Shown here: in pieces, positions 60,608 to 61,372 of the stretch
Numbering within the stretch: position 1 is the first letter of the stretch
Layout of the letters: the number at the start of each line of letters is the position of its first letter
Origin: Eledone cirrhosa
Taxonomy: Eukaryota
Assembly (NCBI GenBank): GCA_964016885.1
Contig: OZ024741.1
Location: 53,878,001-53,942,000 of the forward strand
DNA length: 64,000 bases
Reading direction: 5' to 3'
Made by a program: the position numbers and the translations under genes
Notes under the pieces: model-generated
The model's database searches: none
Told to the model about the DNA's origin: nothing
The model's input: only the letters and a program-made list of their open reading frames with translations

Positions 60608-61372
60608 TTTTATTTACCGCTGTGACCCTATCTGCTTTGGTCGATCTGTGTTCTCTCCCCACTTTCGCATCGACCCGCCCTTCTCTCATCCCTTCTCCTC
60701 CTCACTCTCGTTTTTTTCCTCTCTCTCTCTCTCTATCCATCCGTTCGGTTTTGATTGTTGACCTCTTTACACGTGCCGTGGTGACCTCTCTGTCCACAAT
60801 CTTTGCGGCACGTTTTTACCACCGTCGTAAAAAAACCCTTCTCCTCCTCACTTTTGGTTGCCCGTGTCTCTCTCTCACTTTCTCCTGTCTATGAGAGAGG
60901 CAGCACGGTTATACCAGCTCTGAGTCGGAGCTGACCACCAGGCTAAAGTCTCCCAGGTTGGCCACAATTTACTTTCCCTATTTTTCCACGGTTACTTTTT
61001 TGCATGTTTCTTTCACCTGTGTCTTCCCACGATGGGACCCGTACACTTCTTTTTCTTCTATTCCTTTACTATTTTTCCCCTTCTCCCCCCCCCCCCACTG
61101 TTCTTCCTCCTTTCTTTCTCTTTCCTTTTCTCTCTCCTTTTTTTCTCTCTTTCTCTCTCCTTTTCCACCTGGCCTTTTGATTAATAAAAGGCCTCGGACG
61201 CACCCGAACTACACCGATGTCCTGTAATTCAGCGCCGAAACATCGGTTCGGGAAACATTTACAGCTGACGATGGAAACTCCTTTCTTCCTTTCTCCTCCT
61301 GTTCCGTCCTAACCACCATCCTAAACCTTGTTTTTAGTAACCACACAGCTCATTTCGTTTCATAATTTTTTG
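60608..61372 (+). mobile_element. Pyrimidine-rich non-coding element between (TA)n tracts, carrying a second permuted hammerhead candidate
   Basis: Composition and layout resemble 52430-53125; boundaries are inferred from the flanking microsatellites. Confidence 0.45.
61203..61274 (+). ncRNA. Candidate non-circularly permuted hammerhead ribozyme, second family member
   Basis: ccgatgT-C-ctgtaa / ttcagcgcc-GAAA-catcgg / ttacag-CTGACGA: stem III ccgatgt:acatcgg, stem I ctgtaa:ttacag, extra helix cccgaa:ttcggg. Confidence 0.65.

Follow-up and report, generated by a model that had tools for sequence, protein, structure and literature searches.

The question raised by this locus is whether animal DNA carries a hammerhead ribozyme whose conserved blocks stand in a scrambled order and, if so, how such a motif would build its stem II and what kind of element it would serve. 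The window, i.e., the whole 64-kb stretch of Eledone cirrhosa DNA analysed here, is microsatellite-rich, with about 35% G+C and scattered repeats. At two sites in it, near 53 kb and near 61 kb, we found the full hammerhead core with its blocks in the order cleavage site, GAAA, and CUGANGA (S, G, and C), the predicted cuts falling after positions 53056 and 61221. The scrambled order itself is not new: it is the "type SGC," a noncircular permutation that Eckert, Friedrich, Weinberg and Weinberg (2023, PMC10085705) report from metatranscriptomes only. The main account of these ribozymes has them cutting at the predicted site, requiring four helices (stems I to III plus a stem I-II helix), and acting slowly, with cleavage rates of 0.007-0.19 per min. 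Within the full-text literature searched, which takes in few subscription journals and part of the supplements, theirs is the only SGC report, and neither an SGC hammerhead from an animal genome nor a split stem II is described there.

Table 1. Features of the two hammerhead motifs and of the elements around them, in positions of the window
Feature	Position	Strand	Basis or remark
Whole type-SGC-order hammerhead motif	61199..61274	+	Descriptor scan, pairing check; 4 nt added 5' of the originally predicted start
Block S: stem III 5' strand and GUC triplet	61214..61221	+	Predicted cut after C61221
Stem I 5' strand	61222..61227	+	Partner 61259-61264, 6/6 Watson-Crick; crosses stem III as a pseudoknot
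9-nt linker: 4-nt UUCA junction and five-base stem II 3' strand GCGCC	61228..61236	+	Sequence; layout as in published HRIMA-1 rows
Block G: GAAA and stem III 3' strand	61237..61246	+	Descriptor scan, pairing check
Block C: stem I 3' strand, CUGACGA 61265-61271, inserted U61272, GG 61273-61274	61259..61274	+	GG would pair with C61236-C61235 in bulged register
Extension helix 5' strand	61203..61208	+	Partner 61247-61252, 6/6 Watson-Crick; probable counterpart of the published stem I-II interaction helix
Leader CGC, predicted distal 5' strand of split stem II	61199..61201	+	Complementary to GCG 61232-61234, putative pairing; single A61202 next
Predicted 9-bp hairpin directly 5' of the leader, 61 kb site	61171..61193	+	Folding
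Sister motif, AUA triplet, predicted cut after A53056	53037..53107	+	Leader UCGC 53037-53040 complementary to GCGA 53068-53071; A53107-U53072
Element 1: 633-nt unit and 67-nt terminal direct repeat	52430..53129	+	Repeat copies 52430-52496 and 53063-53129, 99% identical
LINE fragment joined straight to element 1	51641..52430	+	Shares 91% identity with the 31.8-33.0 kb copy
Inverted 5' part of the same LINE, reverse transcriptase domain	50505..51640	-	10-nt overlap of the two parts in the sister copy
Second LINE copy	31820-32975	-	3' end runs into TA tract; 366-aa open frame with reverse transcriptase domain
Element 2: pyrimidine-rich noncoding stretch	60600..61372	+	5' boundary approximate, at an interrupted TA run

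At 61 kb, the site triplet is GTC (61219-61221), the GAAA block lies at 61237-61240, and U61220-A61240 forms the U16.1-A15.1 pair; the same core features are present at 53 kb. Stem III (61214-61220 with 61240-61246) has seven pairs, all Watson-Crick, and stem I has six, as the hammerhead fold demands. The original prediction had listed these two stems together with an extension helix, a GTC site, a CTGACGA core, the same strand order as at 53 kb, and 9-nt linkers with a common AGCG, and the sequences agree on every count: the three helices are Watson-Crick throughout, both motifs read SGC in the descriptor scan, and the linker is 9 nt long with AGCG in each. Over the two motifs, stem III has 6-7 bp, and stems I and III and the extension are free of mismatches in both. 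Further sequences common to the two motifs are CGCAC, preceding the extension, and GG...ACTC, following the core; CGC-A at 53038-53041 matches the leader CGC and the A that follows it at 61 kb. Two further GAAA tetramers, at 61252 and 61274, were rejected as block G, since they either lack a spacer to stem I or allow just two stem III pairs. The heptamer GAAACAT also occurs twice in 61236-61258, 15 nt apart, where an alternative hairpin that would compete with stem III and the extension can be drawn.

Pair positions in the two motifs were compared by coordinates (MAFFT misaligned them). At 13 of the 22 aligned positions both bases differ between the motifs, at 2 only one base does, and 7 are unchanged; no pair is broken. 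The "full covariation" originally claimed between the two copies is too strong a term for double changes at 13/22 pairs in a comparison of two sequences. The changes show that two sequences, of unproven common descent, agree with a single structure; they do not amount to statistical covariation.

A close comparison is afforded by the published HRIMA-1 family, whose 52 rows were counted by eye (PMC10085705). In these rows, UUCN and five bases (six in one row) stand before GAAA in all cases, a U is inserted after CUGANGA in 51/52, and the core reads CUGACGA in 6/52. In the account of the family, mostly one purine separates the stem II 5' strand from the interaction helix, with two to four bases in a variant family, and the junction from stem I to the stem II 3' strand is typically 3 nt. 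Natural SGC ribozymes whose stem I-II helix is joined to stem III without a spacer are also noted there. The motif at 61 kb runs UUCA, five bases, GAAA, and CUGACGA-U-GG, as the HRIMA-1 rows do, and T61272 is therefore read as the inserted base. The original prediction had set T61272 opposite C61236 and called stem II almost absent; taken as the inserted base instead, which on this analogy it very probably is, U61272 leaves GG 61273-74 to pair with CC 61235-36 next to the core. On the core side, 2/5 stem II pairs would then form at 61 kb (two G-C, U61272 bulged) and 1-2/5 at 53 kb (a single A-U next to the core). The closure G10.1-C11.1 would be supplied by two G-C pairs at 61 kb, if U61272 is inserted, and by one A-U at 53 kb, where G-C is usual, the remainder of stem II hinging on the predicted leader pairing.

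The junction between stem I and the stem II 3' strand is 4 nt at both sites (UUCA at 61 kb, UAAA at 53 kb), followed by the five bases. In both motifs, the extension 3' strand falls between the 3' strand of stem III and that of stem I, abutting stem I at 53 kb and standing 6 nt off at 61 kb; as this is the place occupied by the published interaction strand, we read the extension as the stem I-II helix of the published SGC ribozymes. Both motifs thus resemble type SGC (PMC10085705, as far as its account extends) in block order, full core, inserted U, short junction with five bases before GAAA, helix strand set between stem III's and stem I's 3' strands, and purine spacer before the partner strand. 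However, in type SGC, stem II is a continuous helix of about 5 bp formed from the bases after CUGANGA(U), whereas here the core side supplies 1-2 bp. Likewise, the type SGC interaction helix has its partner 3' of stem II, whereas here the 5' end supplies that partner together with what is predicted to be the remainder of stem II. The published SGC descriptor, which asks for CUGAUGA(U)G and at least two further stem II pairs and was used on RefSeq, passes over both motifs, that at 61 kb having CUGACGA and one further pair and that at 53 kb an A-U. The motif appears to work like type SGC while lacking two features of the family, and we do not file it as a HRIMA-1 member.

What completes stem II is the central structural question. 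The five bases before GAAA can all pair, three with the leader and two on the core side at 61 kb, and four and one, respectively, at 53 kb, with a single A (61202 and 53041) between leader and extension in both motifs. This suggests, somewhat in preference to its absence, a stem II split between the 5' leader and the 3' end of the motif, a predicted new subpermutation. Two points of the original prediction would shift accordingly: the motif probably starts at 61199, with the leader CGC included, and not at 61203, and the conserved linker, which had been proposed as a substitute for stem II, does bear on stem II but most likely is its 3' strand, as in the published type SGC descriptions. A reading close to that earlier idea is that stem II is a minimal helix of 1-2 bp, with AGCG and the upstream CGCAC conserved because they make a tertiary contact or bind a protein, and not because they pair with each other. 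Hammerheads with 2-bp and 1-bp stems II do occur naturally (PMC3088659, in the portion describing them), and the three CGC/GCG pairs, being invariant between the motifs, offer no covariation; the feature was, moreover, spotted post hoc. As isolated duplexes, the split-stem helices are weak (-1.7 and -3.6 kcal/mol), and nested folds of the longer constructs place the leader elsewhere at both sites and give the stem II pairs a probability of 0.00 under a model without pseudoknots. Against a minimal stem stand the exact complementarity, identically offset in the two motifs, which at the exact position is matched by a fraction of 0.0014 (site 1) and 0.005 (site 2) of other window leaders, and the junction spacing, which reproduces the SGC junction as published. 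With 0-3 nt of slack, the leader match rises to 2% at each site, in a leader pool that included the real motifs. We consider the minimal stem unlikely and retain the split stem II as the working model.

A rival pairing at 61 kb would join the leader to 61232-61238 in a 7-bp bulged helix (-8.9 kcal/mol) and bury G12-A13 of GAAA. In nested folds, which cannot hold pseudoknots, stem III and the extension dominate in 3/4 constructs and stem I in 1/4, the two sets being mutually exclusive. Folding z-scores are modest, from -1.1 to -2.3, with -1.9 for the circular unit. A hairpin precedes the leader at the 53 kb site too, by folding. Near both motifs lies a complementary GGACG/CGUCC pair, differently placed (61196-61200 with 61305-61309; 53008-53014 with 53083-53088); at 61 kb, its pairing would sequester the leader, which may be a switch or a coincidence.

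On the split-stem model, the RNA would fold into a pseudoknotted SGC ribozyme, likely cutting itself after C61221. U61272 would be bulged out and GG 61273-74 paired with CC 61235-36, while the leader CGC 61199-61201 would pair with GCG 61232-34 to complete stem II, its two partners stacked at the nick. The single A and the extension helix would close the three-way junction by which stems I and II are tied together in the published SGC ribozymes. The motif may thus be pictured as a rearranged form of the published SGC fold: 5 nt (61 kb) or 2 nt (53 kb) would connect the two free ends on the stem III side, and a new opening would lie within stem II. That these genomic copies cut themselves is a reasonably likely prediction. 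With somewhat less assurance, though still on balance, a pseudoknotted SGC ribozyme serving a noncoding retrozyme-like mobile element is our best overall explanation.

Two other readings of the same motif deserve weighing. It could be a fossil left by the integration of a viroid-like or retrozyme RNA: stem II, continuous over 5 bp at first, would have decayed, and cutting would have been lost; the few core-side stem II pairs (2/5 at 61 kb, 1-2/5 at 53 kb) and the metatranscriptomic origin of all published SGC examples (PMC10085705, as reported) would fit. Yet with stems I and III and the extension mismatch-free in both motifs, decay would have had to strike stem II alone, twice, and the 99% identity of the element 1 repeat copies bespeaks a young insertion, so that we regard a fossil as improbable. 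Cleavage chiefly in dimeric form or within a tandem precursor, with block C or the leader supplied by a neighboring unit, is improbable to a still greater degree. Dimeric cleavage is described as common in animal repeats (PMC4209133, PMC7229834), element 1 is longer than one unit, and the exclusion between stem I and stem III with the extension in nested folds is in keeping with it; but the known cases, as described, stem from a weak palindromic stem III, which here has 6-7 bp, and single-strand SGC ribozymes are reported to cleave in cis (PMC10085705).

How far chance could account for such a motif was gauged with a descriptor that covered all six block orders on both strands, with stems I and III of at least six pairs, G-U allowed, and a span of at most 70, its thresholds having been fixed after the motifs had been seen. 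In the 64-kb window, it matched twice in any order, at exactly these motifs, both SGC. Tile-wise dinucleotide shuffles (2621 windows) yielded 4 SGC-order matches, 14 in any order, and no window with two; the original view that chance is unlikely is upheld. A pair of core matches has a probability of about 1.2e-6 per window. A scan relaxed to one core mismatch and stems of 5 found no further motif copies in the window, and the half-motif pattern occurs there only in the two motifs and in the repeat at 52434. Rfam covariance models had no window match at the gathering score and no ribozyme among 66 and 4 weak, microsatellite-driven matches, the S-G-C order departing from the circular block order of Rfam hammerhead types I, II, and III; a tRNA scan of the window returned none. 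When other 30-nt window leaders were swapped in, the extension and at least three leader pairs arose in 7/98,092 overlapping trials at site 1 and 51/98,092 at site 2. Among the 172 pattern-matched loci listed from collections without animal genomes (8 from metagenomes, 44 from viral contigs, and at least 120 from prokaryote genomes), none has stems I and III of 5 pairs, a result of little weight given the kind of genomes covered. One prokaryote locus among the at least 120, with 4 and 6 pairs and a 45-nt linker, was taken as chance.

Chance, in the sense that among many windows the most striking one will now and then contain a pair of descriptor matches, could draw on an expectation of about 0.3 at this rate in some 250,000 scanned windows and on thresholds picked post hoc, and the core pair alone would not survive a multiwindow scan; but the extension and leader features multiply the figure by about 7e-5 and 5e-4, which even with features chosen post hoc leaves no serious case for it, and the equal linker length, the common AGCG, the repeat boundary at the cut, and the lack of 5+5-pair core stems in all 172 listed loci make it more improbable still. 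Selection for an SGC-order hammerhead is, conversely, highly probable.

The elements that carry the motifs are alike in their general character. Both motifs stand near the 3' ends of pyrimidine-rich stretches, which run into TA tracts 66 and 151 nt past the predicted cuts; that of element 2 ends at the TA tract 61373-61426. The pyrimidine fraction is 0.68-0.74 in the four element pieces measured, against 0.49 for the whole window. The originally noted position and composition of the two elements are upheld by these figures, but not their TA flanks, the 53 kb element being TA-flanked on its 3' side only, with a LINE fragment 5' of it. Outside the motif, homology between the elements was not detected (local score 22; shuffles average 20.9, and 108/300 are as high); their 5' parts reach a score of 34, as high in 1/300 shuffles, but on a CT run. 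Element 2 has neither a terminal repeat nor a LINE neighbor, nor any open reading frame of at least 120 aa, and the 175-aa frame of element 1 is of low complexity and has no Pfam match.

Element 1 consists of one unit and 67 nt that hold a partial second motif. Its repeat begins 6 nt 3' of the predicted cut, contains blocks G and C only, and ends where the CATAT of the unit meets the TA tract; a start so close to the cut has a probability of about 0.011 if starts are uniform over the unit, for this one case. At its other end, element 1 meets the LINE fragment at a shared T. The fragment lacks the 66 nt that follow at this point in the sister copy 31820-32975, and those 66 nt occur nowhere else in the window. 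A TA tract (50459-50504) lies to the left of the inverted LINE part, and the 50.5-53.1 kb unit as a whole has TA tracts on either side. Of 783 relatives, 120 are listed; the named animals among these 120 are ctenophores and echinoderms, at 62-68% identity, and two entries carry the label of bacterial metagenome bins. We take the LINE family to be RTE-like, its 5' inversion to be presumably the result of twin priming, and its junction with element 1 to be, on our assumption, a template switch from element RNA to LINE RNA within one insertion. The stretch 50505-52430, with its inverted 5' part and its cut-off 3' end fused to element 1, accordingly looks like the LINE portion of a single twin-primed, template-switched insertion, a junction that could instead be due to a later deletion. 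A 28-nt match (82%) also links 52360-52387, in the LINE 3' region, to 53363-53390, in a repeat downstream of element 1.

These layouts invite comparison with retrozymes. Cleavage would define unit-length RNAs (633 nt for element 1), which would be reverse-transcribed into TA tracts, at least once together with LINE RNA; we give this scenario an even chance. Reverse transcription would be primed inside a circular or multimeric RNA and stop near the cut end. The repeat layout of element 1 fits reverse transcription of such an RNA, as in the retrozyme model, in which copies longer than one unit are described (PMC7761336). Like the non-LTR retrozymes of animals (Cervera and de la Pena 2020, PMC7229834; PMC7761336), element 1 is a noncoding hammerhead repeat with a more-than-unit-length copy, and its 633-nt unit falls within the 51-972 bp range given for consensus sequences by Li et al. 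(bioRxiv 10.64898/2026.07.22.740005). Animal retrozymes are, in these accounts, tied to Penelope-like elements and type I hammerheads and form tandem arrays, whereas here the motif is SGC, the copy spans at most 1.1 units, and the visible partner is a LINE fragment. Of the traits that define retrozymes, the lack of protein coding is thus present, and a type I hammerhead and tandem hammerhead-bearing units are absent. With the pseudo-LTR hammerheads of Penelope-like elements (Cervera and de la Pena 2014, PMC4209133), there are in common a partial tandem, from which terminal repeats containing the hammerhead result, and an unpaired base at the stem II 5' end; microsatellite targets are reported for some clades of these elements (Craig et al., bioRxiv 10.1101/2021.04.23.441226). 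Their hammerheads, however, are described as type I and combine a long stem II with a minimal stem III, which is opposite to the motifs here. No Penelope reverse transcriptase or endonuclease was found in 15 neighboring frames (Pfam), only the two LINE frames giving a match.

We would put forward only tentatively the widest reading, that an animal genome holds at least two retrozyme-like families with an SGC hammerhead opened within stem II, the modeled helix being built from both ends of the motif. If true, this would be the first noncircular hammerhead in a eukaryotic genome; the published SGC account has no example from the genome of a known organism, whereas these motifs lie inside repeats of animal DNA. 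It would also contradict the view that each of the three hammerhead blocks bears entire stem strands, and would link a retrozyme to LINE instead of Penelope machinery. A genome-encoded animal SGC ribozyme would take the permutation out of the realm of viroid-like RNAs and into mobile DNA, and would suggest a genomic ribozyme class missed by type I-III screens. The split stem II would add a permutation not considered before, and pairing of the leader would offer a natural on/off switch.

Several further repeats were seen in the window. A dispersed family of about 190 nt, with more than 12 copies on both strands and often in tandem pairs, has no tRNA or Rfam match; its copies lie at 4520, 18820, 30066, 31390, 34084-34480, 35455, 35835, 40280-40870, 42026, 47160, 56685-57056, and 63158-63546. 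A stop-free frame at 55572-55913 (minus strand), without a Pfam match, resembles the C-terminal endonuclease end of a site-specific non-LTR retrotransposon. Directly 3' of element 2, the stretch 61600-63100 has about 50% G+C and broken frames, seven of which were tested without a Pfam match, and is probably a decayed mobile element.
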